This document shows positions 42,845 through 63,009 of a stretch of 64,000 nucleotides of DNA, piece by piece. Positions within the stretch are counted from its first letter, which is position 1, and the number at the start of each line of letters is the position of its first letter. The DNA is from an uncultured Acidobacteriota bacterium (GTDB lineage: Bacteria; Acidobacteriota; Terriglobia; Terriglobales; Acidobacteriaceae). Both the position numbers and the translations under genes were made by a program. Location of the stretch: the NCBI GenBank assembly GCA_963711675.1, contig CAVQFB010000002.1, forward strand, positions 427,632 through 491,631, written 5' to 3'. The notes under the pieces were generated by a model. It ran no database searches. It saw nothing but the letters and a program-made list of their open reading frames with translations, and had not been told where the DNA came from.

Positions 42845-43022
42845 AAGGCGCGGTGCTTCGCACCGGAAGAATTTTGACACTCCACCCCTTCGAGGGAACT
42901 GTAGGGAAACTTGACATCTTTCTGGAGGAACCATCCTGGCATCCAATAGATAGCGTGGGTGGGGGTTCCGTAAGGAAACCCGTGACTCCTTGCGTAAACG
43001 CGGGTGCTGGGAGGTTGGAGCG

Positions 43023-43403
43023 ATGGCGCTGCTCGATGAGAAGAACCTTGCGGCGGAAGCGGCAAAGCGGGCGCGGTTCCGGGTGCATCACGTGGGGACA
43101 AAGCTGAACGAGGCGGAACTGCACGAGCTGGAGGGGCTGGCGGCGAAGCGGAACGAGACGCAGGCGGAGCTGATCCGCGGGCTGATCCTGCGCGAGATCG
43201 AACAGGACAAGACGGGGCTTCGACCCAGTGCGGAGATGGTGGAAATCACGGCGTGCCGGCTGTTGTTGGTGAACCTGCTGGGTCCGCTGGCGAAGGGCGA
43301 GGCAATGACGCAAGAGGGGTTCGACGGGATCGTGGACGAGGTCAAGAAGCAGAAGGCGCGTGTGGCGCGGGACCGCCTCAAAGACCACGAAGCGCGGCGC
43401 TGA
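43023..43403 (+). CDS. Ribbon-helix-helix protein, MobC/relaxosome-accessory-like
   Basis: GGGAGG RBS. The pattern KLNEAELHELEGLAAKRNETQAELIRGLILREI is typical of MobC/CopG-type RHH proteins. Confidence 0.55.
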   Translation: MALLDEKNLAAEAAKRARFRVHHVGTKLNEAELHELEGLAAKRNETQAELIRGLILREIEQDKTGLRPSAEMVEITACRLLLVNLLGPLAKGEAMTQEGFDGIVDEVKKQKARVARDRLKDHEARR

Positions 43404-43655
43404 GCAGCGGTGGCCGATGAGAAGCTGTCCGTCACCCGCAAAGGCTGACCTATGTCTCCGTCTCGCGTGGACGCTATGACGCGCAGATTTATACGAATAA
43501 TGCAGCGACGCTGGGGCAGGAACCCAGCCCCGATGTGTCCCATTCGCACGCGATTCAGCAAGAGCCAGCGATGCATAAAATAGAACTACAAACCACGCAC
43601 ACGAATCAGATCAGTCAGGGTTTCGGTTTAGGTCTGTGATGCAGCATTCCCGAAT

Positions 43656-43793
43656 GACATGCCCCGGATAGCCAGAGCATAGCCGAGGCCCGGCCAGTGT
43701 CAAGGCCGCGCTTCGCGCGCCGCGTTCGCGGTCGAAGAGCCTTGACACTGGCCTTTGCGCCTCGGCTTATTATTCAGCTATCCGGGGGATGTC
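43656..43793. repeat. 138-nt composite imperfect palindrome (three nested arm pairs)
   Basis: Arm pairs are 43656-72/43777-93 (17 bp, 1 mismatch), 43681-89/43759-67 (9 bp) and 43692-706/43739-53 (15 bp). The central 32 nt is CG-rich with mini-hairpins. Confidence 0.9.
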
Positions 43794-43896
43794 AGATTGT
43801 TACTTCCACGACCGGGCTCCGCGCCGAGTCGAACCGCTGTCGGAAGAGATCTGGGACTTGAGAAAGACGTGTTCAAACAAGCTTTCTCTTACGAGC

Positions 43897-44673
43897 ATGA
43901 GAATCATTACTTATAGCGACCTGCATCTTGAATTTGGCTCGGGCTGGATGTTGCCCCCGGCAGTGAACGGAGATGTCATGATCCTGGCAGGCGATATCGT
44001 CACGCTCAGGGATTATGAGCCGCTCGACCAGATTCTGCGGAAGTGGAAGAAACCAGTCCTCTATGTGACGGGAAACCACGAATATTACACGCGGCGGCCA
44101 ATGAACGAAGAAGACAACAGATTCAAGGCGTGGCTCGAAGACAGACATTCGCAGGTGAAACTGCTGCTTGATGAAGAGGTCAGCATCGGGGGTGTCAACT
44201 TCTTCGGCGGCACGATGTGGACGGATTTCAACGGCGCCGATTTGCGCGCCATGGAGACCGCCCGCTCTCAAATGAACGATTACCGCCTCATCTATAACCC
44301 CGACGAAACGCCTTTCACGCCAGCAGATTCGATTGCGCTACATAAAAACTTCGCGTCGAAATTGCTGAATTGGTTTGGCAAGAATCTAAGTGGTCCGCGC
44401 GTGGTTATCAGCCATAATGCACCCGTCATCAATCCCAACTCCAAATACAAGGGCGGCCCTCTCACGCCGGCGTTCAATTCCCTGGACATGGTGGAGATCA
44501 TTGAGACCCACCAGCCGGCCCTCTGGGTGTATGGCCACACGCATGAATGCGACGATCAGACGATCGGCCGGACCCGGATCATTTCAAATCAACTCGGATA
44601 TCCCAGCAACCTTGGCGGTTTTGAATGCAAGGATTTTGATGAAGCGGGTCTGCCAGTCGAGGTAGGCGTTTAG
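43897..44673 (+). CDS. Calcineurin-like metallophosphoesterase
   Basis: Motifs DLHLEF, AGDIV, GNHEYY, SHNAP, GHTHE in canonical order. Start at ATG 43897 (MRIITYSDLHLE). Confidence 0.85.
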   Translation: MRIITYSDLHLEFGSGWMLPPAVNGDVMILAGDIVTLRDYEPLDQILRKWKKPVLYVTGNHEYYTRRPMNEEDNRFKAWLEDRHSQVKLLLDEEVSIGGVNFFGGTMWTDFNGADLRAMETARSQMNDYRLIYNPDETPFTPADSIALHKNFASKLLNWFGKNLSGPRVVISHNAPVINPNSKYKGGPLTPAFNSLDMVEIIETHQPALWVYGHTHECDDQTIGRTRIISNQLGYPSNLGGFECKDFDEAGLPVEVGV

Positions 44674-44744
44674 CCCCGAGCGGGAAGAAGGTACCTTATG
44701 AGGGCAAGCGACATGCCGTGCATTCTGCCGAAGGTTGCCGAACG

Positions 44745-46229
44745 TCAAAGCCGGCCCAATACGATCCGTAGTTCGTCTGCAATCGGCGTAGAAATCGCAT
44801 CAACCGCTGCGGCCATAGGTACCGCCGTGAGCCATAACTGCACGGATCGCGAGCCAGCGGACAGCGACGCTCGATGGATGAGTCGCCCACGCTTCTTCAG
44901 AGAGTGCCAGCTTTCAGGTGAACAGGGATAGGTTAGACACGCGATTACTTTCGGAGTGGACGCCAGATTCGCGTAAGCCAGCACCTGTAGCATGTCGGTT
45001 CGATGCTGCTCCCGGAGTTGTTCTTCAAGCCGGGACCACGATTGCGCCTGCATCTCTTCCCAGTGACGCTTGTACTTTGCGTCAACAATCAACGTGAGGG
45101 AGTCCCACTCAAGCCATACATCGGGAATCAAGGACTTCTGTGAGCCGAGGTAGGGTGGTTCCCAGTTCACGGCATGTGTCGTCTCGTGTTTTCGCCCCAC
45201 CTTCATTCTGCCGCCTGTCCGGCGCGCAATCGTGCAAAACACCGTCTCCACCCACGCTTCGAAGAACTGGTCCATGCGCATCGTCCACGGAATTCCTGCG
45301 AGGTCGCTAAGTCCCGCCAGGCCCCGCTCCTCAACTGTCCACTCAATCGCTTGTAATCCGTCAGTGAACTGCTCGCTCCGCATCGGACGATGGAGCCAAG
45401 TTGCAAGCGTCGAGGAGCTAGGAAAGTAGGGGGTGACACCGTGCACTCTACGCATTAGCTCGTCCGCAAACTCAATTAGCCTATGAACAAATGCGCCTTG
45501 GTCCCTCTGTGTTTCAAGCGCTCGAAGTTGCCTCTCGACTGCGATCCGGATCGCGCCTTTCAGCAGACGATCATCGCGTAAATCGGGGAACACACACGGC
45601 ACGGAAAGAAAATTCGCCGAGGGTAAGCTCTTGGTGGCGTAGCGCGGCCAATTAACAGTTCCGCGTGGTGCACCGCGAGATTCATGGATCATCTCAAAGC
45701 GACGGTCGAGCGAGTCGAGTAGCGCCTTGAGGCGAGTGAGAACCATGAATGACAGCACCCAAACTGGGACTCTTCGCTCTGAACGGTGGAGCAGCGGCAG
45801 GCGAAGAGGCACGGGCGCTATGCGCCATCCCATCTCGGCTAACATCGGTCCGATTCCCGGCCACGGAAATCTGGGTTGGATAACCAGGCCGAAATCAAGG
45901 CGGGCTGTGGTTGCTGAGAACAGGGGAATTGCTCCTACAGACCGGCCGGATGAAACCACGAGCCAGAGGTCGCGACCGTCGTAATCCCCTTCCATTCGTG
46001 CATCGAGACGCATCATCAGAGCTCGGTTTCGCGTAATGAATTGTTCGGCGATCCGCGCTGCCTGCGCTGCGGGGTCGCGACTAGACCGCGTCTGGAAAAA
46101 GTCTATGGCTGAATATCGCGCCTCGGAATAATCTGGCAATTCGAGACAAACCTGTGCGAGATGGTCGGGCGCTTTAAGCGAGAGGCGGCTTCGAGGGGAC
46201 GACGAGCGCCTTAGAGACTGTCTAGCCAC
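44745..46229 (-). CDS. McrC-like PD-(D/E)xK nuclease subunit of a McrBC-type (type IV) restriction system
   Basis: C-terminal LIPDVWLEW...LIVDAKYK nuclease motif. It overlaps the 3' end of the McrB-like gene by 19 nt. Confidence 0.75.
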   Translation of the reverse strand: MARQSLRRSSSPRSRLSLKAPDHLAQVCLELPDYSEARYSAIDFFQTRSSRDPAAQAARIAEQFITRNRALMMRLDARMEGDYDGRDLWLVVSSGRSVGAIPLFSATTARLDFGLVIQPRFPWPGIGPMLAEMGWRIAPVPLRLPLLHRSERRVPVWVLSFMVLTRLKALLDSLDRRFEMIHESRGAPRGTVNWPRYATKSLPSANFLSVPCVFPDLRDDRLLKGAIRIAVERQLRALETQRDQGAFVHRLIEFADELMRRVHGVTPYFPSSSTLATWLHRPMRSEQFTDGLQAIEWTVEERGLAGLSDLAGIPWTMRMDQFFEAWVETVFCTIARRTGGRMKVGRKHETTHAVNWEPPYLGSQKSLIPDVWLEWDSLTLIVDAKYKRHWEEMQAQSWSRLEEQLREQHRTDMLQVLAYANLASTPKVIACLTYPCSPESWHSLKKRGRLIHRASLSAGSRSVQLWLTAVPMAAAVDAISTPIADELRIVLGRL

Positions 46230-47684
46230 TGGAGGTAGCTCCTAATGGGTTCGGCGAAGCCACCAACATAACCCTGAAACAAGTACTCCTGCAGTAGAGG
46301 CGCGAGGCTTGTTTTCAGCTCGCGCCTTGCTTTGTCTTCACTCATCTCGAGAAAATACGAGTGTCCCGGCACGAGCGCAAACGCATCGTCAGGCGCGTGT
46401 TCCACAAATATAGAGACGAGCTTCCGGAACGCGTCTTGCATCAGGGAGCATCCGTGCTGCTGAACAACACTCATCCGCGGCCACGCGGAAACGAATGCGA
46501 ATCGTCGCCTGACGGCAACGTCAACAATTGCGATGCTACGATCCGCGCTGTTCATCGTTCCGAGTATGTGTAGGTTCTTAGGTAGGTTGAGCGACCGATG
46601 GAACGGAGAGCCAAAGTCATAGGGCAAGCTGGATCACGCGCTCGCGGTCAGTTTCGGTCTCTAAGAGAAAGATCGCTTCGCCCAGGATCTTGCTTAAGTC
46701 GGCTCGGTTGATTTCGTCGATGTGCAGCAGATACGGTCGAGACAAGTCGGCTGACGCCAGGGCTGCTGCTTCCATCAGCACGCCGGGCGTCGCTTTGAAA
46801 CGCAGACCAACTCCACCATCGGAATTGTCAGGAGCAAGGCCTCCAATGAAGTTTTCGTACGTCGTGTTGGCGTGGAATTGGATGCTCCTCCCCAGGCCCT
46901 TGTACTCGTCGTCGAGAAGGTCGAGGGCCATTTTCGTTTTACCTGTACCAGGAGGGCCCTGGAGAATTATGTAGCGTCTGGAGTCCAACAGACCCTTTAA
47001 CTCATTGCGCTCAACTCCCGGCATAAGACAGTCGAGCCAGCCCGACCTGATTTCTTCGGCGCTCGGCTGCCACCGGGCCAGCGGCTCGTATCCCCTCTCT
47101 TCGAAAAGAAGATCCAGGAGAGCGCTCACCGCAGCCTCTGTCGTCGCTTTGTCGGTCGTCGGTCGAAATAGCGCGTAGACCTCTTTGCCATAGCGATCAA
47201 GGGCGGCCTTGTGGCTGGACCACTCTTTCTTGATTTCATCTGGAACCGAAATGTCGGTCCGGGTAGGGTCCTGTTTCGCCCAAGCAACGCGACTTCCTTT
47301 GCCATAACGGTGGTTTAGCCAACCGCAAATAGCTTTTGTCTTTCGTGCGTGGCCGGGCCGACCCAGAATCGCTTCGTCTGGCGTTAGACCTTGCGTCCCA
47401 ACCACTAGGCCGAGCAAACAAGGTGCCCCCTCTGCAGGGAAAATTACGAATGATAGCCCGCTGTAGGCGCCCGAGGGAGGGTTGGAAGGGTGGATGTACG
47501 CAGCAAACGGAACCCCAGTCTCGCCGCCCATTGCCGGCGCACGAAGCGCGATTTCGCCGCTTGCTGCTTGCGGATAACGCCCTTCCGCCGAGCCAAACAG
47601 AGACGCGAGGGCTGCCTCGTTTCGATCTTTCCAGCCTGCGTCAACCGACGAGTGGATAACTTCCACCAATTTCTCAAAAGCCAC
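46211..47684 (-). pseudogene. McrB-like AAA+ GTPase subunit, split by a 1-nt frameshift near 46620-46628
   Basis: ORF 46617..47684 has Walker A (GPPGTGKT) and Walker B (LLHIDEINRA). ORF 46211..46627 continues with LPYDFGSPF..NLHILGTMNSADRS..RRRF. Together they form one McrB AAA+ module in two frames. Confidence 0.8.
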
Positions 47685-47813
47685 TTGCGTTGAACCTCCT
47701 CTATTCGCTCCGCACCAATCTACTCCTGCAGGGCTCTTCTGTGGAGTTATTCCGGGTTGTTCGTGCCCACCTCAATTCGGCAACCGACATGCTTCACGTT
47801 GGTCAGCGTCCAA

Positions 47814-48410
47814 TCACAGCGCTTCGATATAGGGTCGAATGACATTGCTTACCCGGCAGACTTTGGCGTAGCGGTAGATTTCGTCGATGTTGGCTCGTTT
47901 CTGGCGAAGACAATCCTTTAGGGCTTCGATTGCGACATCGAGTCCGATTTTGTTCCGAAATTTGAAACAGTCGGCGACAGTCTTTGCGGCCGAATAGACA
48001 CAGACTGTGACGCCCTCCACCTGATGTTTGTCGATTCCCTCCGCGAGTGATGGCCCGGACAGCCGAACGATCCTGAGTGAGGGCGAAGCGAGAGCAGGGG
48101 TTCTTGCCCCTTTGGGGAGAGCGATCCAAACCGAAGCCGGACTCTGCGTCGTGATCTCGTGAAAGACGAGTGCCGAAAGCAGGCAGAGAGTAGCTTGCGG
48201 GACTCGCTTGGCGACTTCGGCGTAGGAGTGGTGTTCCGTCACGTCGGCATCTGGAAGTGTGTAGATTCCACGTGCAGGCCGATTGAGCTTGCCTTGCCGG
48301 TGGAGACGAACGAGATACTGCCGCGGAAAACCGATCACCTCGATATCACGGGACCTAACAATCCCGTGTTCGCCGATGTACTGCATAATCTTTTGAAGAG
48401 AATTGTCCAT
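47814..48410 (-). CDS. AbiEi-family (type IV TA antitoxin-like) winged-helix protein, no AbiEii partner
   Basis: N-terminus IMQYIGEHGIVRSRDIEVIGFPRQYLVRLHRQGKLNRPARGIYTL (AbiEi_4-like), with a C-terminal AbiEi-like domain. The next gene downstream is McrB-like, not a nucleotidyltransferase. Confidence 0.75.
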   Translation of the reverse strand: MDNSLQKIMQYIGEHGIVRSRDIEVIGFPRQYLVRLHRQGKLNRPARGIYTLPDADVTEHHSYAEVAKRVPQATLCLLSALVFHEITTQSPASVWIALPKGARTPALASPSLRIVRLSGPSLAEGIDKHQVEGVTVCVYSAAKTVADCFKFRNKIGLDVAIEALKDCLRQKRANIDEIYRYAKVCRVSNVIRPYIEAL

Positions 48411-48420
48411 AGCGGCTGTC

Positions 48421-48460
48421 CCAATACGTCATTACGTAATAATATCTGATGACGTATTGG
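48421..48460. promoter_or_regulatory. Perfect 12-bp inverted repeat, candidate AbiEi operator
   Basis: CCAATACGTCAT (48421-32) and ATGACGTATTGG (48449-60) with a 16-nt AT-rich spacer. It begins 11 nt upstream of the AbiEi start codon, in the divergent intergenic region. Confidence 0.5.
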
Positions 48461-48728
48461 CACACTCAATAGTATCCGCGCCGACGCAGGTTGCTGGCAG
48501 AAAAACGAAAAACATTAAGGTAATGTCGTGCCATACTAGCTGTCATATCCTCGTGAAGAATTTGCGTTCGCGTCAAGAAAGTCTACGCATATTCGCCTTT
48601 CATTCGCTATGATTGGTAGTGGCGCACTGACATGACTCGCTAAGCTTGATCGGGACAATGACTTCGGTCATCCCTAGCACGCTTCAGAGCAGGATGAGGA
48701 CTGATCTCAGATTGTTATAATTGCTGGC

Positions 48729-50693
48729 GTGACCGCAAAGAAGCCCAGCGCGAGCGTAGTTCCGGACTCGGCAAGCCCGACTCTGAATTCAGAAAGGCTT
48801 GTGCCAGTGAGTGCGCCATCGGGTGATCCTGATTTTATGCAAGAGTTGTTCCTGCCGATTCACGGTCACATTGAATTGCATCGCGAGGAACTCGCGGTGA
48901 TCGACCACCCATCCTTCCAACGACTCAGACGTGTGAGACAACTCGGACTTGCTCATATGGTGTTTCCAGGCGCAACCCACACACGGTTTGAGCATTGCGT
49001 TGGGGCTGTTCACGTGGCAAAGACGATCGTCGATCACGTGAACAAGAACTTCAAGAATGCCAAAAACGACTCCATCCAATGGAAGATGTGTGGCATTGAC
49101 AATCCTGCCGCAAGATTCATTCGATTGGGGGCTCTCCTTCACGATGTGGGCCACCTTCCATTCGGCCATACTCTCGAGGATGAACTAAACCACCTTCGCT
49201 CGCATGACGGCCCCGAACGACTAAATCGCGTCTCTACAATCCCCTATCCGAATCACGATGTCGACAGAACACTAGTGGATCTCAGCTTGAAACCGGACGG
49301 CGGGTGGACCCTTAAGGCCTTGATTAACGAGCTATATAAGAGCACTGCGAAGGAGTTGGGTCTAGGCAAGCACGATGCTTTCACCATTCTTTCTCACATC
49401 GTTTGTAAACCGCCAAAGAAGGAGTCCGAGAAGGCGGTCTGGATCAGTACCACCGCGAGTATTGCAGAGAATTTCCCCCTGCGCGTTTGCCAAGACATAG
49501 TGGGCAATACGATCTGCGCCGACTTTCTCGACTACCTTCACAGGGACTGGTATCACCTAGGCAAACCCTTATATTTCGACGAGCGACTTTATCAGTACAT
49601 GGAAGTCAGGCAGCGGCTGAGTCCAGTCGATGGTGATGCCGCGCCAAGATTCGTCATCAATGTGCGTGCTACGGAGAAGATCCGTCACGATGCCCTCACC
49701 GATATTCTCGAACTTTTGAACGCGCGGTACAAGCTTGCCGAAACTGTGTTGTTCCACCGAACAAAATTAGCCCTCACTGGATTGCTGGATCGCTCTTTGC
49801 TGGAAATCGGCGATCTCTATGAGAAAGTGGGCTTAAGATTCGAGAAACTCGCTGAATCGGCTGAGTCACTACTGCTGGAGGCGTCAGACGACGGCTTGCC
49901 TCTACTTCTCAAAGAACTTGCGAATGGGACCGAGAAGTCGGATCGAACAATAATCCAAGCGGCAATAGCGGAAGAGACTCGGGAAATCCAAATGGAGGTC
50001 GCTCCGCAGGCTTCGTTCGAGGAAGGAACCCCGAGCGGGAAACTTGGTTCCCAAAAGGATTTGGCCCTGCGTCTGATTGAGAGACTTCGCGACCGTGAAG
50101 TGTATACGCTTGCGTGCAAACTAAGGATGGCTGATTTTCCGGGCGCGCACTTGCCGGGAAATCCTCGGCTCCAGAAGGTCCTCGATATTTACAGAGTTCC
50201 AAAGAACAGATTAGCGTATCTGCGAATGATGGAAGCACGGTGCGGGCTTCCTTGGGGTTCTCTGGTCATGAATTGCCCACCGGACGCGACGATGAATGCG
50301 AAGGTCGCGAAAGTAAACCTCTTTATTGAGGATGAAGTCAGCCCGTTCGACAAGTATGAAGAACAAGGCGAGGCTAACCTGACGCGGGGAGCCCTTACCG
50401 CGCAAATTAAGCGGTTTTACGAGTTGTGGGCGGCGATCATCTATATTGACCGTAGAGTTTGGGATGCCCTATCAGAGGGTGAGCGCAAGAATCTGAGGTC
50501 TGTTTTGAAGACGTTCTTTTTCCTAGAGCCAGGTGCGGACCCCAGTGTCGTCCGGGCTCAAATGGAGCCCTCGCTCGACATTCTGAGGAAGCGAAGAGCG
50601 TCTCGGAGCGGGACGACAAGTGTGGACGAAGAACAATACCGTGGTTTGTTTTTCCCCAGTGGACTTTCGTTTGATAATCCCACTATTAAGTGA
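48729..50693 (+). CDS. SAMHD1/dGTPase-like HD-domain phosphohydrolase with a long uncharacterised C-terminal region (start 48729 GTG or 48837 ATG)
   Basis: FQRLRRVRQLGLAHMVFPGATHTRFEHCVGA, LLHDVGHLPFGH and DFLDYLHRDWYHLG together form the H..HD..D metal-ligand set of dNTP triphosphohydrolase-type HD proteins. Confidence 0.85.
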   Translation: MTAKKPSASVVPDSASPTLNSERLVPVSAPSGDPDFMQELFLPIHGHIELHREELAVIDHPSFQRLRRVRQLGLAHMVFPGATHTRFEHCVGAVHVAKTIVDHVNKNFKNAKNDSIQWKMCGIDNPAARFIRLGALLHDVGHLPFGHTLEDELNHLRSHDGPERLNRVSTIPYPNHDVDRTLVDLSLKPDGGWTLKALINELYKSTAKELGLGKHDAFTILSHIVCKPPKKESEKAVWISTTASIAENFPLRVCQDIVGNTICADFLDYLHRDWYHLGKPLYFDERLYQYMEVRQRLSPVDGDAAPRFVINVRATEKIRHDALTDILELLNARYKLAETVLFHRTKLALTGLLDRSLLEIGDLYEKVGLRFEKLAESAESLLLEASDDGLPLLLKELANGTEKSDRTIIQAAIAEETREIQMEVAPQASFEEGTPSGKLGSQKDLALRLIERLRDREVYTLACKLRMADFPGAHLPGNPRLQKVLDIYRVPKNRLAYLRMMEARCGLPWGSLVMNCPPDATMNAKVAKVNLFIEDEVSPFDKYEEQGEANLTRGALTAQIKRFYELWAAIIYIDRRVWDALSEGERKNLRSVLKTFFFLEPGADPSVVRAQMEPSLDILRKRRASRSGTTSVDEEQYRGLFFPSGLSFDNPTIK

Positions 50694-51587
50694 GTGCTTC
50701 CCTTGTCCCAACAGCGTGATCTGAAGAGCGAACTGTCGTCTGTCGCGACTTCACTTCGTCCGCTCGGGAAGCCGTTTGTGTCCGTCTTGGAACTTGCCAA
50801 TGATCTTGGAACGGCGGTGTCTCTCCGACTGCAGAACGCTCGAAGCAATAACACTGCCCAGATCGATCTCTGGACTAACCCCGCGAAAATCGTTGTTCAT
50901 CGGTTCAGCAAGCTAGAAGGTGAGAGGGAGTTGAAGGGCCAGGACGAGGGCCTGCTGAATTCTCGCGAAAGATTTTCGGTAGCTCACGAACTCGGACATT
51001 GGGTTCTTTTCAATCGCTTTCAGATTGGGCCGGAATCTGAGAGGCGTCCTTATTGGGAACAGGAAGAAGTGATAAACGCCTTTGCAGGTCAGCTGCTTGT
51101 GCCAGACTGGCTTGCAAAAAACTGGCTGGAGAGTACACCGAAACACCTACCCATCCCTCCCTTCGCGTTACGATCGTGGGCCGAGGATTGCCGCGTGTCA
51201 GAAGAGGTCGCTGCAAAAGCACTGGTGCGGCAGAGAAGTTTCATCGGTTTTCTCAGATTGGTCACGACTCGGAGAAAGCGTGATCAGACACGTGTACTTC
51301 AAGTTCTTTCATGTGCCAAGGGAGATGCATTGGAGCTGCCAAGCCAGCGTTCTCACATAGAGAATGCAAAGCTTTTCGAGATGTTAACGAATAGCACCGT
51401 TGGGTCCGGCTGGATTGAGCAGGTCAGTTTGGCGCGATGTGCACCTCAGGACCTTGGAATTGCTTGGCGTTACGCGAACAAGTGGCGTTCTGAAAATACG
51501 ATTTGGCTTTCACTCATTCGTGGAAGGAACACCGAGCTCGACCTCTATGGTGGTTCTCTCTTCAGCCACGCGAACGCGAAAATCTAG
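50694..51587 (+). CDS. ImmA/IrrE-family (DUF955, M78-like) zinc metallopeptidase domain protein
   Basis: GTG 50694 directly follows the TGA of the HD gene. HEXXH (VAHELGHW) plus the downstream EEVINAFAGQLLVP motif. Confidence 0.8.
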   Translation: MLPLSQQRDLKSELSSVATSLRPLGKPFVSVLELANDLGTAVSLRLQNARSNNTAQIDLWTNPAKIVVHRFSKLEGERELKGQDEGLLNSRERFSVAHELGHWVLFNRFQIGPESERRPYWEQEEVINAFAGQLLVPDWLAKNWLESTPKHLPIPPFALRSWAEDCRVSEEVAAKALVRQRSFIGFLRLVTTRRKRDQTRVLQVLSCAKGDALELPSQRSHIENAKLFEMLTNSTVGSGWIEQVSLARCAPQDLGIAWRYANKWRSENTIWLSLIRGRNTELDLYGGSLFSHANAKI

Positions 51588-51668
51588 CCATCGTCATCCT
51601 GCTTCGATTGAGGATTGAGGCGAGTTTCCTCGCGTGAGTGCCAAGCGGGTCACTGCCCGAGTAAAATG

Positions 51669-52004
51669 TGGTGCGGGCGGAGGGACTCAAACCCTCATGG
51701 GCCGTTTAAGCCCTGCGGATTTTCGTACCGTCTACGGCTTTCGCCGCCCGGGCTTGGACCTCTTTTGGAGGGCTCACGCCAGGTTTGCGGTCTGGACTAT
51801 CCCTTCACCGTCCTCCGGAAAAGTCCGAAGCTTAGGTGCTGCCCGTCTTGTCTCTACACCTTCCCGGCTGGTGTTTCTCCGGGCTCGGCTCGGGGTTGCC
51901 ATTTAAGGGCTCCCCGAATTTGAGCAGTTCTGCATCGCTGGTTTCCCAGACGAGCACTCAAGTTTTCCTTAGGTCCACTGCGTATGCCATTCCGCCACGC
52001 CCGT
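51669..52004 (-). tRNA. tRNA-Leu(UAA)-like gene interrupted by a group I intron (exons 52004..51971 and 51723..51669)
   Basis: The joined exons fold as a class II tRNA: acceptor, GCGGAATGGCATACGC D-arm, GUGGA/UCCGC anticodon stem, loop CCU|AAAA, 18-nt variable arm, GAGGG/CCCUC T-stem and encoded ACCA. The 3' exon closely resembles my recollection of the cyanobacterial tRNA-Leu(UAA) 3' exon. Confidence 0.8.
51724..51970 (-). ncRNA. Group I (IC3-like) self-splicing intron, 247 nt, no ORF
   Basis: Inserted after U34 of the anticodon. P1 can form with a U.G pair at the 5' splice site (CCU|AAG with CUUGAG), and the intron ends in G. Core blocks GGGAAACC, UCAAAUUCGG, AUGGCAACCCCGAGCCGAGCC, GGAAGGUGUAGAGACAAGACGG and CACCUAAGC match the tRNA-Leu/Azoarcus-type introns as I remember them. 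Confidence 0.8.
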
Positions 52005-52112
52005 GCGCGGCTCTCTGACTGCATTTCTATCATAGGGCAGATTCGCCGCGATTTATACTCCACGTGATTTACAGATTTTCGCGAAATCGCTCGCATAGAA
52101 CGAGGGACGAAG

Positions 52113-53363
52113 ATGGCGGAACAACACACGATCCTTGGCGGAAAAGTTTACGTCTACAAGCGGCCGAACAGCAGCCGCTGGCAATGCTCAAGCTTCTTCG
52201 CGGGCAAGAATCGTCGCACCAGCACGAAGGAAGAGAGCCTCGCCAAAGCCAAGGACGTCGCCGAGGACTGGTATCTACAGCTTCGGGGAAAACTTCTCAC
52301 TGGAGAGCTCAAAGCCGAAAAGACCTTTCGCGAGGTGTCTGAACAATTTTTACGCGAATGCGAGATCATGACGCGTGGAGAACGTAGCAAGCAATACGTG
52401 AAGGGCCAGTATTTGCGGTCGAGCGTTCACTTGGTGCCCTTCTTCGGAAACATGGACATCTCGAAGATCACCACGGGAAAAATCGTGGATTATCGAGTTC
52501 ACAGACACCAACAAGCAATTGCGAAACGCGGCAAGCCGCCGGCACACAGCACCATGCACCACGAAATCGTGACGCTGCGCCAGACCTTGAAGACCGCGCT
52601 GTGCCACGGATGGCTCGACCGGCTTCCAGATTTCTCTGAGCCGTACCGGCGATCATCGAAAGTCTCCTACCGGGCATGGTTTTCGCCAGAAGAATACGAG
52701 AAACTCTGTGAAGCGACTCGAAAACGCGCACTTGAGCCGAAGAAAAAGGGCTTCAAATGGCAAGCGGAGCAACTGCATGACTATGTCCTCTTCGCGGGCA
52801 ATACCGGGCTGCGGCCTGATGAGGCACGGCGCCTTGAGTTCCGTGATGTCGAGATCGTTGACGACGAGCCTTCGGGCGAGACGATTCTCGAGATTGAAGT
52901 GCGCGGAAAACGCGGATTCGGATATTGCAAGAGTATGCCCGATGCAGTGAGTCCATTTGAGCGACTTAGAAGCAGGCTCCGTCCGAGGCGCGTTGACGGC
53001 GTGCGTGCCCCCACCGAAGTGTCCGACAATTCTGATGTCCGGGGGAAGGAATGGCGCACGCCCGAACCGACCGACCTCATTTTTCCCAAATGGCAGAGCG
53101 AGCTCTTCAAGACCATCACTGAGGAGGAGAATCTTCGGTTCGACAGAGACGGCCGACCACGTACGGCGTACAGCCTACGGCACACGTATATCAGCATGCG
53201 GTTGATGGAGGGAGCCAACATCTATCAAATCGCTAAGAACTGTCGCACGAGTGTCGGAATGATCGAGAAATATTACGGGGTGCATGTCAAGAACTCGCTC
53301 AACGCCGCTGCCATCAATGTGGTCCGCTCGGGTAAAGACGAGATGGCGGAAGAAGAGGTATGA
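52113..53363 (+). CDS. Tyrosine-type site-specific integrase (second)
   Basis: C-terminal catalytic region (GLRPDEARRLEFRDV ... AYSLRHTYISMRL ... IAKNCRTSVGMIEKYYG); GAGGGA RBS. Confidence 0.9.
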   Translation: MAEQHTILGGKVYVYKRPNSSRWQCSSFFAGKNRRTSTKEESLAKAKDVAEDWYLQLRGKLLTGELKAEKTFREVSEQFLRECEIMTRGERSKQYVKGQYLRSSVHLVPFFGNMDISKITTGKIVDYRVHRHQQAIAKRGKPPAHSTMHHEIVTLRQTLKTALCHGWLDRLPDFSEPYRRSSKVSYRAWFSPEEYEKLCEATRKRALEPKKKGFKWQAEQLHDYVLFAGNTGLRPDEARRLEFRDVEIVDDEPSGETILEIEVRGKRGFGYCKSMPDAVSPFERLRSRLRPRRVDGVRAPTEVSDNSDVRGKEWRTPEPTDLIFPKWQSELFKTITEEENLRFDRDGRPRTAYSLRHTYISMRLMEGANIYQIAKNCRTSVGMIEKYYGVHVKNSLNAAAINVVRSGKDEMAEEEV

Positions 53364-53438
53364 GCGCAACAACAGCATTGCCCGTCTTTCTTCCGAAATC
53401 GTGCTTGCTTGCTCCCCCGATAGCGGTATCAACACCCA

Positions 53439-53490
53439 GTATATTAGGTTATTTTGATGCATTACGCGTAAAAGCCTCGTATATTAGGTT
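53439..53490. promoter_or_regulatory. Two 12-bp direct repeats (GTATATTAGGTT) upstream of the XRE gene, candidate operator
   Basis: Copies at 53439-50 and 53479-90. The second ends 1 nt before ATG 53492. Confidence 0.4.
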
Positions 53491-53491
53491 T

Positions 53492-53770
53492 ATGTTGCCC
53501 CTGTTCTCACTAGGCGAGCAGATCGCCATCAAGCGCAAAGAACTCGGCCTGACGAAGCCCACGCTTGCAAAAAAAGCCAGGGTCGGACTCTCCACGCTCG
53601 ACGCCCTGGAAAACGGACGGATGGGCGAACTGGGATATTCCAAGATCACCAATATTCTCGCGGCGCTGGGGCTGGAGCTGAAGCTTCAGCAAGCAAGCGC
53701 GAGCCGGCCGACGCTTGAAGAACTCATGGAAGAGGCACGGGATGATGATGGTCTGGACCGACGCCGCTGA
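53492..53770 (+). CDS. XRE-family helix-turn-helix transcriptional regulator (HipB-like)
   Basis: LGEQIAIKRKELGLTKPTLAKKARVGLSTLDALENG is an HTH_XRE pattern. Start chosen at ATG 53492. Confidence 0.75.
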   Translation: MLPLFSLGEQIAIKRKELGLTKPTLAKKARVGLSTLDALENGRMGELGYSKITNILAALGLELKLQQASASRPTLEELMEEARDDDGLDRRR

Positions 53771-53915
53771 GGCGGGAATACTCGAACGCATAGAGGCTGC
53801 GATTGCGGACACCTCAAAGGAACTGCACGCCTACATTAAAGCGCACGCGGAATTCATTGAGATAGGCAATCGCATGCTCCAGCAATGGGAGCAAGGTGTC
53901 GCGCTTTCGCTTTAG
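53742..53915 (+). CDS. Possible small ORF overlapping the XRE gene end
   Basis: ORF only (MMMVWTDAAEAGILERIE...). Confidence 0.25.
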   Translation: MMMVWTDAAEAGILERIEAAIADTSKELHAYIKAHAEFIEIGNRMLQQWEQGVALSL

Positions 53916-54328
53916 GTGCATTCCAAAAGGTTGCTTTCCTCGTTCCTCCGGGTGTACCGATTATTGTCGAGAGTTGGTACGAGATACAACGAACGGCTAT
54001 GACATTTTGGGAATGTCCAAGGACCCAGACCTTGCCTCCCAGCATTGGACCCGCGCTTCGAAACGTTGATTGGCAAGGCGCGCGAAGGTTCTGCTGCGAA
54101 GTAGAGATAATCAACGTTGGAAATGGTGAGTCGCTCGTCAGTTTCCCTTTGTGCTCACATCCACCACCGAACTCAGCGAGGAATCCTGATCTAGCGACCA
54201 AAGGGGTTAGCAAGCATGTAGTGACCTGACCCCATTGTTCGTTCAAATCGTATTCCAAATTGGGACGAATTTAGGGGGCAGGTCCGGTTGGAAAGGGCCG
54301 ACCAGGCTGAGGTCGGCCTATCCATTTT

Positions 54329-54775
54329 TCACCGACTCTTGAACCAAGTAACAATCAAATCGGGACGTTGCGCTAGAGCCTGCTGGACGGGCCCATTGTG
54401 TATCTGGGAGCAGAGTGCTGTATTCACCGCTGCGTTCACGAAGCCCATACGAAAAGCCGCTTGAGCGGCGTTCATCATGTTCGTGCGATCCCAGACATTT
54501 CCTAGAACCTGGTACTCGAATGGGACGTTCGGGAGCGATATCCCAGAGATCCCTTGCAGGGCGTTGACTCCGCACAGGCCGCCCTCATTGAAGCCGTGGT
54601 CCCCAGCGGACCAATCGAGATTGGCTTTCACAAAGCCGTAGTCCTGCGCGTTTGCTTGGCTGATCGTCAATGCCGCGCCCAGCAAGAGGGCAGCGAGAAC
54701 CATTGCTTTCTTGAGTAAGACCCCGCTAACGAACCGTTGTAAGGAAACTGATCGAAATCCTTTGCAGTTGTTCAT
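54329..54775 (-). CDS. Small secreted hypothetical protein
   Basis: ATG 54775 is preceded by GGAGGA. Signal peptide ...KKAMVLAALLLGAALTISQANAQD. Confidence 0.55.
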   Translation of the reverse strand: MNNCKGFRSVSLQRFVSGVLLKKAMVLAALLLGAALTISQANAQDYGFVKANLDWSAGDHGFNEGGLCGVNALQGISGISLPNVPFEYQVLGNVWDRTNMMNAAQAAFRMGFVNAAVNTALCSQIHNGPVQQALAQRPDLIVTWFKSR

Positions 54776-54912
54776 TTCATCCTCCGATAGTTGATTAGCT
54801 GGTTTGTTCTCAAGAGGCGACGACCAAGTTCGCACGTCCTCAGGGGCTCGGTTGATCGCGAGCCGTGAATTTGAGATTGTGGACGTCCGGCTTTCGGCCA
54901 AATAATTATTCT

Positions 54913-56020
54913 TCACTTTGCTTGCGTCTTTGCGGCCGGCGCGTTCAGAGTTTTAGGAGCCTCCGTCGAGGCGGGGGATAACTCCCAATTGACGGAGAAT
55001 TGACCCGTGCGCAAATCGGTTTCGACTGGTTTTCCCTTACACTTTTCATTGCGCCTGACGAACACAAACTTCTGAAGTGATCCGTGCGACGCAACTTGTT
55101 CAGTGGATCCGAAGCTCTGCGAGGTCAGGTTTTGAAGCTGTTCCGCTGACATGTCAACGAGCAACTCCTTGGACGCCGTTGTGAAACCTCCTCCCAAGAT
55201 GGCAACGGCTTGAGTGAAGCCGGAGCGAAAAGAAAGGTTGGATTGCGCTCCCGAGTGTGGCGAGAGCCTGGACCGTATTGAAATAGATCGCCCTTCGACC
55301 CGTTAGCTTGCGGTCAGCAGAGAAAATGCTAGTGACGTGATCGAGGGAAAAAGCAACAAGGGATCCCTCTTCCGTACAGGCGTCGTCCGGGGGCTGCGCG
55401 GCTTGGTGGTCGGTTACGACGCTTATGCCGCCCAATGGAACGACGATTGCCATGGGACACTCGTTGACGATAGAAAGCTGGATCGCGTAGAAGTTTTTAG
55501 CCACCCCGTTTCCATACTTATTTCCAGCTTGGCTCTTCGGAACAATCTGTGGAGCGAGCTTCACTTGTGATTTGAATTCGCAGGCCAGCGTTCCGGTTTC
55601 GAACGTAACGAAACTAGAGCCAGCCGATAAGGCCACCTCCTGCAGTGTGTAGTTCGAAGGGGCTGTGAATTGGGCAAGTATTTTCGAGTTGTCCAGTGAG
55701 CGCGATAATGCCGGGATTGGGTTTGGAGTGACGCCCACCGCAGGGAGTACCGCTATATGGACACTGTTCATGTCCGTGATGCCGGCGAAACCAGAACCCG
55801 TGATCTCAAGGACGAAATCCTGCGTTGCGCCTTGAGACGTGTTTTGGGTCGCTGCTTGTGGGTACACGGCTACCGATGAAATCTTCGGTTCAGTCGCGGC
55901 CGGTTGTGCAGCTGCCGCCTGTGGCTCCGGAGCCGTGGCTTGCGACGCTAACGATGTCGTCAGAGTAAGAATGGAAACGAACACTAAGACGCTGATACCT
56001 GAAATTCGAAAGACCGGCAC
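54913..56020 (-). pseudogene. Secreted hypothetical protein gene split by a frameshift near 55226-55236
   Basis: ORF 55154..56020 (signal peptide, IPT-like N-terminus) and ORF 54913..55197 join as ...AIQPFF/RSGFTQAVAILGGGFTTASKELL... if one nt is added or removed in the run GCGAAAAGAAAGG. Confidence 0.6.
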
Positions 56021-56265
56021 ATATCCTCCTCACATTCTTGAAGTTGACCTTTGTACCTAGACGACCGAAGCACCAACCTGTCCGCTCTCTTGGTAGCGCA
56101 AAAGTTTCTTAAATGGCGTCCAGGCCGTTCTTGTTCCTCTGTCTGTAGGAGACGACAGATAGCCGCGAAATCCTTTTTCAAATGGTGAATGACGGTAATT
56201 CATGGCAGACAACAACGGATAGCGTTGCTTCATGTAGAATTCGGGCACCCTGGTCGTGAGGTTCT

Positions 56266-56922
56266 GTGAGACGCCATTCGTCCATGACTGTGGAGGAGTT
56301 GATACGCGCTTGCGCCGAATCCCATGACGGCGCGGCTTGGGAAGAGTTCGTCTCCCGTTTTCAGAGGCCGATCAGTCTTTCAATCAAACGCACGGCCTGC
56401 CAATGGGGAAAAGACCCAGCGCAGTTTGTCGACGATTTACTTCAAGAGACCTATCTCAAGCTCTGTGCGGATAAGTGCCGCGTGTTGCTCGAATTTGCTC
56501 GGCAACATTCTGACGAGGCAGTGCTGGGATACATAAAGACAATTGCGATCAATGTTGCGCACGATCACTTCAAGTCACTCCATTCTCAGAAGCGCGGCGC
56601 GGGAGAGACCGATCAGTTGCACGAAGACTTCGACCCAGCAGCGCAGAGCGGCAGCTTTGGGGGCCCAGAGGCCATGGACCGCGAGGTCTTTCTGAAGCAG
56701 GTCGACGAGCAGCTACAGAATTGCGCGGCTGGCTCCAATCAGGAGCGGGACTGCCTTATTTTCTGGTTTTACTATCTGCAAGGTATGAGCGCTAAAGCAA
56801 TTGCTGCTTTGGCGACCATCAAACTCACAGCAAAGGGCGTGGAGGCCGTCATTTTCCGGCTCACTCGCTGTGTACGGGAGCATTTGGGCAACTCGGGCAC
56901 GGCAGACTCGGCGGAGGCATAG
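56266..56922 (+). CDS. ECF-type RNA polymerase sigma-70 family factor
   Basis: Region 2 (FVDDLLQETYLKL) and region 4 HTH (GMSAKAIAALATIKLTAKGVEAVIFRL). Confidence 0.85.
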   Translation: MRRHSSMTVEELIRACAESHDGAAWEEFVSRFQRPISLSIKRTACQWGKDPAQFVDDLLQETYLKLCADKCRVLLEFARQHSDEAVLGYIKTIAINVAHDHFKSLHSQKRGAGETDQLHEDFDPAAQSGSFGGPEAMDREVFLKQVDEQLQNCAAGSNQERDCLIFWFYYLQGMSAKAIAALATIKLTAKGVEAVIFRLTRCVREHLGNSGTADSAEA

Positions 56923-56979
56923 AAAGCGGACCGAAAAGGATTCCTCCCGCCAATGTCGTATTAGAAGGAGTAGCAGATT

Positions 56980-59900
56980 TTGACACGGCCATTCGACAAA
57001 CATCTCGACAGCGACGAACTGGATAGGCTCGTTTCGTTGCAAGAGACGAGTGTGTCCGGTTCGGAGCAACTCTCGGAGGCAGCTCTGAGAGAGGCCCAAC
57101 GCCACGTTGAGTCTTGCCAGGACTGCAGCCGAAAGGTGCAGAGGCACAGGTTCGTGCAGAGCGAGATTTTGCGTATGCGAGTGCCTAATCCATCGCCGCC
57201 GACTCCGCGAGTGCATGGGAGATGCCGAGTGGCTGGAAGTGGCGGCCGGGCTTTTGCCGGAAGCGAAGACAAGAGAACTGATGAAACATGCGGCACAATG
57301 CGGGCACTGCGGACCTCTGCTAAAGAACGCCGCAGAAGCACTCGTGGACGAAGCAACTCCTAGCGAGGAGGCACTGCTGGCCTCACTGCAAAGTGCGCGA
57401 CCCGAATGGCGGAAGAACATGGCCGCAACACTGCGAGACAGTGTGCGAGATCGGCAACCGAAGTCTTCGTGGTGGAGGGCGGTCTTCGCTTGGCCGGCTC
57501 CAGCATACGCATTTGCGGGGATTGTCGCCGTTGCCGTAGTGGCTTGGATCGGAGTGCGGGCTTTGCATCCTCCGTCTGCCGAACAATTGCTCGCGCAGGC
57601 CTATACGAGCATCGGACTTTAGAAGTGAGAATCCCCGGTGCAAAATATGCTCCGATGCAGGCAGCAGCGAGGCGCCGGGCGAGTCGGATTTCGACAAACC
57701 ACAATCTTTGTTAAAGGCCGAGGATCTGATTGGTGAAGCCCTCAACAAGAATCCGAACGACCCAAAGTGGCTGCAAGCACGGCCCGTGCCGAACTTGCTC
57801 GACGGCAACTACGAATCCGCCATCAAGTCGTTGCAGCGAGCGCTGGAGACGCAGCCCGATTCGCCCAGACTTCTGACCGACCTAGGCTCTGCATATTTCG
57901 TGCGTGCCGAATCCGCCGAATCGGCCCATTGACTACGGCAATGCCATCATGAATCGTTTGGCAAGGCGCTGGCCAAGTCGCCGGACGATCCGATCGCGCT
58001 GTTCAATCGCGCCCTGGCCTGCGAACACATGTTTCTCTACACCCAAGCCGTGGACGACTGGGAGCACTATCTACGCGTCGATCCACAAGGCGAGTGGGCT
58101 GACGATGCCCGCCGAAGGCTAACGGCTCTGAAACAGAAACTCCAGCAGCACGAGAAAGTCAAGTCCGAACCGCTGCTGAGTCCAGCAGAGATTGTAAGAG
58201 GCATCGGACGAATACGTGCTGCGAGGCAGAAAATTGACGATCGTATCGAGGAATACCTTCGCCTTGCAATAACTGACATGGCTGCCGCAGGCCTTTCCGG
58301 GTGGGTCCGAGCAATCTTCGATTGAGTAAGAAGTTCTCGCGCTGCCCTTTGGGTTTTGGCTGAGATTTGCCGCAGCGAACATGGTGACACGTGGCTGGCA
58401 GATTTGCTTAACCACCATCGGTGGCAATTTTCTGGTGGCATTAAGGCTTTGTCAGCAGCGCTTAAAGCGGACGAAAGAGGGGACTATTCCAGGGCCAGAA
58501 CTCCGCACGACAGTGCGACTCAATTGTTTCGGGACAGATGCGAACACAGCAGGGAGATACGGGCGCAAGCCGAGGAGGTCTATTCAGACCACTTGCTCTG
58601 GGAGGGGACCGCAGTGTTCACTCGCTGCTGAAACAAATGGCATGAACCGCTTAGGCGCAGCTAGCTACAGATGGCTCCGGGCTCAGATGAGTTTGGAGCA
58701 ATCGAACTGCGCCGACCTGGTCGGTGACCTCGGAACGTACGAAGCCGCGATCGACGAGGGACTGCAAGCGAAGCAGCGCGTCACCAGTAGCTATAGCCTC
58801 TTGTTCTGCGCGGTTGGGGTTTCAGGCGCTCTCTGCATGCTTCGCTCGGAGACGCCGGCCGATTTCGCCGGTGTCCGAAAGGATTGACGCTCTTCTGGTC
58901 TGGCCAGATTGACCTGATGAAGGGATACAACCTTTATTACGACTTGGACTCGGCCGCTGACGGTTGCGGCCTCGCCAACTTCCAAGTCATTGTATGGCGA
59001 GAAGCTGCTGCGTTGATCGATCGACATCCCGACGTGCTGCTGCGAGCAATGGCTCACCGTTGGTATGGAAGTGCCGCATACGTTGCAGACAAGCCGAGGC
59101 CTAGCGGCGGCGGAGTTTTCTAAAGCCAGTGCGTTATTTGCTGCTTCCCCCACAAACTGCGGCGACCGACAGAGATCACATGGACGCAGAGGTCTGGCTG
59201 GCGCAGACTGAAATCCGCCAGGGTGACTTGGATCAGGCTGCCACGCGGCTCCAACCATCAAGCCAAAATTGACAGAACACCCAGCTTTGACCCAGAAATT
59301 GTATTCTACACGGCGCAAGCGGACATCGCAATGCGGCACTCCGATTCCGACGCTGACAGAAGCCGCGCTTCGGTCGGCTATTTTTCTAGCCGAGTGGGCT
59401 CTCAACTCTTTTCCCATCCGAAAATGATCGGCACGAGTGGGCCGAACAAACTCGGGGCGCCTATAGAAACCTAGTGGAATGGAAGCTTCGTCAGGGTGAC
59501 GCCAATTCGGCCCTTGAGCTTTGGGAGTGGTATAGGGGGGCGGAATTGAGAGCGCTGACAGCACATTCCGTCACCTGGAGGACCCCGGAAATACGCCCCC
59601 CGATCCCCGCGATGCTCCGCCGCTTCCTTCGCCTAACGTAGTAATCGCGCAACTACCTCTACTCAGCGACGAAACAGTTATCGCTTATGGCAGTTTCCCG
59701 ATGGGATTGCTGTCTGGGCCTATGATGATCGTGGCGTTTCATCCCGATGGATTCCTACTTCCTTGCCGCCCGTGCAAGATATAGTAATTCGTTTTCAGCG
59801 TCTCTGCTCAGATCCCAATTCGGACCTCGCTACACTGCGTACAGACTGGGAGTGCGTATAGGACCTGCTATTGGGCCCGTGGAGGAACGCCTTGGGCCTG

Positions 59901-60664
59901 GCAGAACAATTGTGTTCGAACCGGATGACTTTCTAGAAGACATTCCGTGGGAAGCCCTGGTAGACCCCAGCGCACACTACCTCTTAGAACGCTCACCCGT
60001 ATTCTTGCAACCTGCCCTTTACCGAACCATGCATCTCCGGCCAGCGTCAGCAATTACCAAGGACGTGCAAGCCCTGATCGTCAGTGTCTCGGCAGCTAAG
60101 GAAGAGGGTCTGACGCCGCTGGTCGACGCCGACATTGAGGCTCAAACCGTAGCGAATGGATTTCAGTCCGCACATTGGCTTCAAGGCACCAATGCGACCC
60201 TATCGGCCATTCGCAAGGAAATTCGCGGCAGTGTTGTCTTCCACTTTGCGGGACATGCGATTTCGTCACCGCAGCGAAGCGGCCTTGTCCTAGCGGAAAC
60301 CGACCCTGACACACACGTCTCCCGTCTGGTCGACGCCGAAAGCCTTTCAGGCGAGAGAAACCGGAAATCTCCAATTAGCCGTATTATCCGCGTGCCAAAC
60401 CGGGGGAGAGTCTGAGCCTGGTAGTTCCGGTACCGAAAATCTAGTGGAGTCTCTTCTCCGCGCTGGCGTTCCGCACGTAGTCGCCAGCCGATGGAATGTC
60501 GATTCACGCGAAACAGCGGAATTCATGAAGCCTTTTACGAAAAACTCTTATCTGGAGCCGACATTGCCGATGCAGTTCACAACGCGCGGCGAACGCTAGC
60601 CTCCCAGCTTCTCTCCGAGCATCCGTACTATTGGGCTGCATTCGAAATCCAGGGCAGGAAATGA
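56980..60664 (+). pseudogene. Anti-sigma (zf-HC2) - TM - TPR - CHAT domain protein gene, broken by many frameshifts and stops
   Basis: Consecutive ORF fragments in all three + frames read as one protein: HVESCQDC / AAQCGHCGP zinc-finger parts, a TM helix (AYAFAGIVAVAVVAWIG), TPR-like LQRALETQPDSP.., ALFNRALACEHMFLYTQAVDDWEHYLRVDP, a CHAT core (VVFHFAGHAISSPQRSGLVLAE) and the typical C-terminus HPYYWAAFEIQGRK (stop 60662-64). Confidence 0.75.
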
Positions 60665-60686
60665 TGACCTCTAAGGAGAATTTCAA

Positions 60687-62985: not shown

Positions 62986-63009
62986 AACAATTCTCGATCT
63001 GCAGGCAGC

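Follow-up and report, generated by a model that had tools for sequence, protein, structure and literature searches.

How should one read a tRNA gene that is split by a group I intron and, at the same time, departs from its relatives at positions that are normally invariant? The question is raised by a tRNA-Leu(UAA) gene located in a 64-kb stretch of DNA (the whole of this stretch being referred to below as the window). The source genome is acidobacterial, its nearest relatives being Candidatus Sulfotelmatobacter and metagenome-assembled genomes (MAGs) of Acidobacteriaceae, and the flanks of the gene are syntenic with one of these (L183), in agreement with the first-pass annotation of this DNA. 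That the locus is a tRNA-Leu gene bearing a group I intron appears to us practically certain. We also favor, with a probability of roughly 60%, the view that this copy is impaired or decaying under relaxed selection and that the lesions which it carries would affect both tRNA function and splicing.

The interrupted gene and the fold of its intron

The gene occupies positions 51669-52004 of the minus strand, on which all of its parts lie, as read from the sequence and from ARAGORN applied to the spliced product. It is composed of a 34-nt 5' exon (tRNA positions 1-34, 52004-51971, ACGGGCGUGGCGGAAUGGCAUACGCAGUGGACCU), a 247-nt IC3-like group I intron (51970-51724) and a 55-nt 3' exon (51723-51669, AAAAUCCGCAGGGCUUAAACGGCCCAUGAGGGUUUGAGUCCCUCCGCCCGCACCA) that runs from tRNA position 35 to the encoded CCA end. 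Comparison with relatives defines in addition a conserved 5' flank (52005-52066, minus strand) with a TATGAT -10-like box. The annotation had proposed that the two exons reconstitute a class II tRNA, and ARAGORN indeed recognizes the joined halves: the 89-nt product is called as a class II tRNA-Leu(taa) whose variable arm is long and whose ACCA end is encoded in the gene, and the drawing shows the anticodon UAA, a long-variable-arm cloverleaf and the discriminator A73 once the intron is removed. As had been described, the 247-nt insert sits between U34 and A35 (CCU/a...g/AAAA in the window gene), where joining of the exons restores the loop of the anticodon, while a U.G pair marks the 5' splice site in P1 and a terminal G (omega-G, 51724) precedes the 3' splice site. 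The unspliced gene escapes both default ARAGORN and the Rfam tRNA model, as was anticipated for standard tRNA scans. No endonuclease open reading frame (ORF) is present in the intron, whose length would not accommodate one, and Pfam gives no match for the ORFs that overlap it; likewise, no transposase is fused to the intron or located inside it, the adjoining mobility gene being a tyrosine recombinase that lies outside the tRNA gene.

The intron itself is supported by a local match to the Rfam group I model RF00028, by homology to a published seed alignment and by covariation. In a local search of 701 nt, RF00028 matched positions 51776-51980 with 26.4 bits (E=1.3e-4). The expectation that this model would recognize the intron is therefore borne out at the level of local significance but not at the curated gathering score of 50 bits, which leaves the match borderline and accounts for the fact that a gathering-level search of the whole window lists only one signal recognition particle (SRP) RNA and one tRNA-Met. 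Williams (2020) points out that the Rfam seed was devoid of bacterial introns, and applied cut-offs of 18-20 bits (bioRxiv 10.1101/2020.01.27.920355). The insertion at 34/35 of tRNA-Leu(UAA), together with the seed homology, places the intron in the Leu.3Ug class (IC3).

The helices P1, P2, P3, P4, P5, P6, P6a, P7, P8, P9 and P9b were drawn on the window sequence and their pairs counted over an alignment of 52 homologs, to which the counts in this and the next paragraph refer. Standard pairs fill 94% of the cells, a share that falls to 27-43% once the 3' partners are shifted by one to three columns; both sides of a pair change in 171 cells, against 53 +/- 5 in shuffles, and 20 pairs covary. 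Because these counts exceed those of the slid and shuffled controls, the P1-P9 fold, with its P3/P7 pseudoknot, is a real and conserved group I fold. Covariation is rich in P2, P6a, P8, P9 and P9b and is also seen, as one compensated change, in P7. Since the pattern with which homologs were searched included the 5' strands of both P3 and P4, the invariance of these two helices is uninformative in either direction.

In the 5' part of the intron, the P1 hairpin (51956-51974) pairs exon ACCU and intron AAG (51974-51968) with CUUGAGU (51962-51956), its splice-site pair (columns 8-28) being U.G in 52/52 homologs, and is followed by the P2 hairpin with a GAAA loop (51935-51953), in which six of seven pairs change on both sides. 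The core extends over 51839-51927, from the 5' strand of P3 (51927-51922) to its 3' strand (51844-51839), and holds P4 (51917-51912 with 51895-51890) alongside P5, P6 (51889-51887 with 51860-51858) and P6a (51883-51879 with 51867-51863; four covarying pairs). P7 (51854-51848 with 51799-51794), the helix in which group I introns have their guanosine-binding site, encloses P8 (51838-51835 with 51810-51807; two covarying pairs). The P9 domain (51727-51791) is made of P9 (51791-51788 with 51730-51727; one covarying pair), a variable stem inside it and the P9b hairpin (51747-51734), capped by a GAAA tetraloop and containing three covarying pairs. Judging from its family, the intron would be self-splicing. 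According to the established chemistry of group I introns, the precursor would fold into P1-P9, an external guanosine would attack the 5' splice site marked by the U.G pair in P1, the terminal G would then occupy the guanosine site of P7, and ligation of the exons would release the mature tRNA.

Private substitutions and the state of the gene

The first-pass annotation implicitly took the gene as intact, a view that does not survive comparison with three sets of relatives, namely the 15 closest genomic orthologs, 95 genomic copies and 100 metagenome copies of the same clade. The exons are near-invariant in the 15 closest orthologs, from which the window copy differs by five private transitions. 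G1->A (52004) breaks the 1-72 pair and leaves A1xC72, U33->C (51972) replaces the invariant U33, and C56->U (51689) replaces the near-invariant C56; C28->U (51977) converts a G-C pair to U.G and is neutral, and A57->G (51688) is a common variant, present in 16/100 metagenome copies. Three universal elements of tRNAs, U33, G1-C72 and C56-G19, are consequently replaced by C33, A1xC72 and U56. G1, CTT at positions 32-34 and TTC at positions 54-56 are each found in 94/95 genomic copies, the exception being every time the window. None of the 100 metagenome copies has A1, and U28 and U56 occur in one copy each. The junction pattern with C33 gave 0 matches in 241 million metagenome records, versus at least 120 for the form with U33.

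The ribozyme has private changes as well, A->G in J4/5 (51910) and U->A in P7 (51849), both with 0/100 occurrences in the metagenome copies. The latter turns a U-A pair of P7 into an AxA mismatch, the other five of six pairs being intact, and the exonic C33 leaves P1 with a CxA mismatch instead of U-A at position -2. Among the 52 homologs, the P1 pair (columns 7-29) is UA in 47 and UG in 4, and the P7 pair (columns 165-225) is UA in 50 and GC in 1 (L127, where the change is compensated); the remaining sequence is in both cases the window, the single one that pairs at neither position. Over columns conserved at 95% or more, the window departs at 9/220, while 88/101 sequences depart at only 0-2. 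The RF00028 scores tell the same story: six orthologs score 41.5-57.7 bits, with only L149 reaching the gathering score, and the 26.4 bits of the window lie ~17 bits below its closest orthologs. This divergence is not general sequence noise, since the tRNA-Met of the window, at a distance of 12 kb, matches its counterpart in L183 with 100% identity.

How could such a copy have arisen? The gene stands at its ancestral place in the chromosome, with tRNA-Met on one side and, on the other, the homolog of ORF 62419-63132. Two islands, each with an integrase, now enclose it; it has lost ~195 nt of native upstream DNA, has accumulated substitutions and is most likely turning into a pseudogene. If so, the genome would be expected to have a working tRNA-Leu(UAA) at another locus. 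A near relative offers a point of comparison. The metagenome contig Ga0307476_10044023 (L292) is the closest relative of the island lying upstream of the gene (integrase 97% identical, DNA 94-96%), and its tRNA-Leu copy (2861-3021), only 88% identical to that of the window, has lesions of its own: G4U, C23U/G24A in the D stem and GGAA instead of GAAA in the P2 loop. The independent damage in these two copies fits relaxed selection in that lineage.

Several observations speak against decay. Neither a second tRNA-Leu(UAA) nor a second copy of the intron (nhmmer profile) is found within the 64-kb window, and a sole copy would have to work. Each lesion may be non-lethal: one mismatch in P1 or in P7 might do no more than slow down splicing, the change in J4/5 could give a sheared G.A or a longer P5, C28U and A57G are neutral, and tRNAs with C33, A1xC72 or G19.U56 can keep partial activity. 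Other metagenome copies are off consensus too (L326, L328 and L302), and L230, with a similar island arrangement, has a consensus tRNA gene. One may thus ask whether the gene is fully functional, with an intron that self-splices, a tRNA that decodes UUA/UUG and odd bases that are no more than tolerated variants of the lineage. The helices P1-P9 can all form, the U.G pair and omega-G are intact, ARAGORN still accepts the spliced tRNA and the upstream -10-like box is conserved, all of which would be in keeping with such a gene. We nevertheless hold full function to be unlikely in view of the three substitutions at positions invariant in 94/95 relatives, of two conserved ribozyme pairs broken and uncompensated, of the deficit in RF00028 score and of a C33 junction seen in no other sequence among the metagenome records; moreover, the lesions of L292 differ from those of the window, so that the variants are not a conserved feature of the lineage.

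A trivial origin of the odd bases has also to be considered, namely sequencing or assembly errors, or the consensus of a mixed-strain MAG, behind which the real gene would resemble its orthologs. The source is probably a MAG, as are its relatives, no exact counterpart of the integrase protein is on record, and the five exon changes are all transitions. Yet some 14 departures from the consensus of the clade within 336 nt would imply an extreme local error rate next to an identical tRNA-Met and to flanking ORFs that are long and intact, and about half of the differences in the intron are ordinary polymorphisms encountered in other copies; artefact is in our opinion very improbable. It seems more reasonable to argue that the copy is impaired or decaying.

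Relatives, hosts and genomic islands

Bacterial tRNA group I introns have been catalogued on a large scale, with 5292 of them in 80,413 genomes and Leu.3Ug as one of four classical types (Williams 2020, bioRxiv 10.1101/2020.01.27.920355). The core blocks quoted in the first-pass annotation were compared with the 26-sequence seed alignment of the same study; all are present in the window, and they match the rows of Azoarcus and Ncf2.Leu.3Ug. The likeness to Ncf2.Leu.3Ug reaches 73.6% identity over the full length, with the same host gene, insertion point and helices, an identical J2/3-P3-J3/4-P4 stretch and near-identical P7-P3'-P8 and J8/7 blocks. The differences reside in the bases before the splice site (the class as a whole is written CUU/a...g/AAAA, and Ncf2 has CUU, whereas the window has CCU and an unpaired position -2 in P1), in P7 (GACUA in Ncf2, GACAA in the window) and in the P6a, P8 and P9a extensions, for which the window has its own. 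The intron of cyanobacterial and plastid tRNA-Leu(UAA) genes (Anabaena/Synechococcus; Sel1.Leu.3Ug) shares with the window the tRNA, the site, the IC3 type, the U.G pair, the omega-G and the lack of an ORF, but is only 59% identical to it, with a core of GGUGCAGAGAC and GGGAGC-UACCC where the window has GGUGUAGAGAC and GGGCAG-CACC. The Azoarcus tRNA-Ile(CAU) IC3 intron (Aol6.Ile2.5Ug), for which solved structures exist, has in common with the window the blocks AUGGCAAC-CCGAGCC, GGUGUAGAGAC-AGACGG, CACCUAAG and GGUGAAGG-AUAGUCCAG as well as a P9 hairpin with a GAAA tetraloop; it differs by its tRNA, its insertion after position 36, a shorter P9, a longer P5 and an overall identity of 54%. By its core blocks, the window intron looks closer to the proteobacterial/Azoarcus type than to the cyanobacterial one.

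The first-pass annotation considered that the occurrence of such an intron in an acidobacterium would be phylogenetically informative. A search of species-representative genomes with the 20-nt pattern GAACTGCTCAAATTCGGGGA (J2/3-P3-J3/4-P4) returned at least 120 matches. About 95 of the 120 matches listed are tRNA-Leu(UAA) genes split at GGACUU/a...g/AAAAUC, as established by mapping the exons, and about 10 are tRNA-Met(CAU) genes of Burkholderiales and Neisseriales. Among the matches listed are at least 36 genomes of Acidobacteriota (Terriglobales, Acidobacteriaceae, Bryobacterales, Ca. Sulfotelmatobacter and Acidiferrales), the remainder belonging mostly to Alpha-, Beta- and Gammaproteobacteria, with genomes of Tepidisphaeraceae (Planctomycetota) and Pseudobdellovibrionaceae (Bdellovibrionota) in addition. 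The closest copies among them are those of L153 (a MAG of Ca. Sulfotelmatobacter, with 93% identity in the intron), L172, L183 and L146, and the window gene as a whole is 87-93% identical to its orthologs in acidobacterial genomes. A clade-specific junction pattern was furthermore found in at least 120 metagenome contigs. The acidobacterial occurrence is thus no phylogenetic novelty, because the gene is widespread and the Leu.3Ug class was already catalogued (Williams 2020).

The same searches gave some further observations. In the tRNA-Met(CAU) genes of L121, L137, L159, L170, L175, L190, L215, L231 and L239, the intron core is inserted as ACU/u...g/CAUAAUCC, in hosts that include Burkholderia, Paraburkholderia, Comamonas, Aquitalea, Silvimonas and a Neisseriales MAG; we take these introns to be of the fMet.2Ug type of Williams 2020. 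Truncated copies of the tRNA-Leu gene, made of the 5' exon and ~95-225 nt of intron before the sequences diverge, are carried by the metagenome contigs L339, L244, L258, L255, L347 and L288, and could be att-type remnants or deletion products. A broad IC3 core pattern, AAGGTGYAGAGACNNGACGG, matches at least 120 viral contigs of IMG/VR (L001-L120), and introns with an IC3 core are on that account common in phage-like contigs. A search of the phage collection with the window gene yielded only short chance matches or matches to tRNA ends, and no homolog of the integrase that adjoins the gene (52113-53363) was found there, so that a phage origin is unsupported.

The genomic setting is best understood from L183, an Acidobacteriaceae MAG in which an acyl-CoA ligase gene, a small ORF, tRNA-Met (+), ~190 nt and the intron-bearing tRNA-Leu (-) follow one another without interruption; ~95 nt past tRNA-Leu comes the homolog of window ORF 62419-63132. 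The window has this very order with two inserted blocks, and its GC content drops from ~0.58 to ~0.53 past 40 kb. Block 1 (40050-51668, delimited by synteny with L183) is an island between the 3' ends of tRNA-Met (39973-40049, +), which borders it, and tRNA-Leu. It encodes a classical integrase (40094-41347), a McrBC-domain protein (44745-46229) beside an AAA_5 ATPase (46617-47684), AbiEi (47814-48410), a dGTPase-like HD protein of 654 aa (48729-50693) and an M78 peptidase of IrrE/CapP-like type (50694-51587), and it looks like a defence island. A metallophosphoesterase (PDC-S10-like) is also encoded in this block.

Block 2, an island of ~10.3 kb, begins ~55 nt upstream of tRNA-Leu (~52059-62392, the far end being placed from L183 synteny only). 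Homology to relatives ends near 52058-52066, and island DNA takes over from there; the ~195 nt of native upstream DNA lost in the window are retained in L292 and L230. The first gene of the block, on the plus strand and transcribed away from the tRNA, encodes a divergent tyrosine recombinase (52113-53363), which has a Pfam Phage_int_SAM_3 score of 22.0 bits (cutoff 22.6), a weak Phage_integrase match and tyrosine-recombinase catalytic motifs that are conserved in alignment. It is followed by an XRE-type helix-turn-helix protein (53360-53770), and most other ORFs of the block (55154-56020, 58791-59564 and 60687-62069) have no Pfam or PADLOC match. Within the window, no att-type direct repeat of the tRNA-Met or tRNA-Leu ends exceeds chance length. 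In L230 the orientation is as in the window and the integrase is truncated; since the tRNA-Leu gene is consensus there, the island arrangement alone does not force decay. Elsewhere in the window, a bacterial small SRP RNA lies at 15704-15801 (+; 68.7 bits), and ORF 34487-37150 encodes an alpha-glucan phosphorylase with an N-terminal match to a GAF/PtsP-NifA-type sensor (residues ~14-186), an unusual fusion.

The integrase and a possible origin of the interrupted gene

Homologs of the block 2 integrase lie directly upstream of an intron-bearing tRNA-Leu in at least 49/240 related loci; across phyla, their protein identity is 57-78%. Eighteen loci display a full layout, in which the 5' half of an intronless tRNA-Leu(UAA) is followed by the integrase on the same strand and then by a whole intron-bearing gene that has a -10-like box of its own (e.g., L197 2030-3837, L192 5636-7453, L181 1386-3142 and L213 3939-5780; also L337, L271, L311 and L298); 6 further loci have the 5'-half fragment without the integrase. 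The 5' halves end 0-5 nt past the anticodon loop (e.g., GCCGGGAUGGCGAAAUUGGCAGACGCAGCGGACUUAAAAUCC). Both Acidobacteriota and Alphaproteobacteria show the layout, with a tandem pair of 5' halves in L213.

This arrangement brings to mind the islands that target tRNA genes, which remote plasmid homologs of the integrase also recall by directly following the 3' parts of tRNA-Lys and tRNA-Met. Some integrative islands reportedly have their crossover in the tRNA anticodon loop (sublocation I of Williams 2002), and the position of the integrase after a 5' half of tRNA-Leu(UAA) resembles theirs. In classical islands, however, the target is rebuilt by a 3' half that the element carries, whereas the related loci have instead a complete intron-bearing tRNA-Leu after the integrase. 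In the loci that were examined, exon 2 has an acceptor strand that pairs 7/7 with exon 1 of the same gene and, in the Acidobacteria examined, makes only 3-4/7 pairs with the upstream fragment. Two scenarios were rejected on the basis of this pairing: an integrase element that carried the 5' half into a native intron-bearing gene, and, for Acidobacteria, an exon 2 that would be the resident 3' half. The latter may hold for some Alphaproteobacteria (L150, L213 and L217), loci that would be equally compatible with a smaller element, flanked by AAAAUC(CGU) repeats, whose end lies at the intron/exon-2 junction. A resident 3' half just downstream of the intron-bearing gene was rejected too, none being found within 0.4-5 kb; homology between loci stops at the CCA, with variable DNA beyond. 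Fragments of the 3' exon or T arm do occur 1-5 kb downstream of complete genes in L193 (889-1296 and 6180-6233), L150 (5690-5740) and L205 (2675-2726), which is what one would expect were the 3' part of the gene a target of classical islands as well.

The simplest reading suggests a family of islands that targets a resident intronless tRNA-Leu(UAA) at its anticodon loop, leaves it unrebuilt and carries, beside the integrase, a complete intron-bearing replacement. It is tempting to go one step further and to propose, very tentatively, that the intron-bearing tRNA-Leu(UAA) is, or began as, a replacement tRNA carried by tyrosine-integrase islands, the intron splitting the target of the integrase, the anticodon stem-loop, in the carried copy and thereby giving immunity; we consider this possible, if somewhat doubtful. 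Were it true, a dead 5' half of the resident gene would be left behind while self-splicing would keep the immune replacement functional, the near-identical introns of Acidobacteriota, Proteobacteria, Planctomycetota and Bdellovibrionota would find an explanation, and the decayed copy and inverted integrase of the window would represent a late, eroding stage of the island. Our literature search found no paper describing an island with an intron-bearing replacement tRNA-Leu. The nearest analogy is the IStron, a chimera of a group I intron and an IS605/IS200-type transposase (PMC4227781), in which an intron of self-splicing type is likewise physically linked to a DNA-mobility gene; the mobility gene of the window differs in being a tyrosine recombinase located outside the intron and upstream of the tRNA gene, and its functional link to the intron is hypothetical. 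By analogy, such a linkage could explain how an intron spreads without a homing endonuclease. As far as the window is concerned, the integrase is inverted relative to the layout of related loci and no 5' half of an intronless tRNA-Leu was found (pattern with 3 mismatches; nhmmer profile), so that the layout bears on it only as history, and the integrase link is a lead and not a result.

The finding adds one more member, a damaged one, to a catalogued tRNA-intron class often encountered in soil Acidobacteria and Proteobacteria. Intron-bearing genes escape tRNA finders at default settings as well as the gathering threshold of Rfam, so that genomes can seem to lack tRNA-Leu(UAA). A positive call is insufficient, given that intron-bearing tRNA genes may be pseudogenes, which become visible only through comparison with orthologs. 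Decay and island context are modestly informative in themselves, and the succession of a 5' half, an integrase and an intron-bearing gene points to a possible role of the intron in protecting tRNA genes against integrases that target the anticodon loop.

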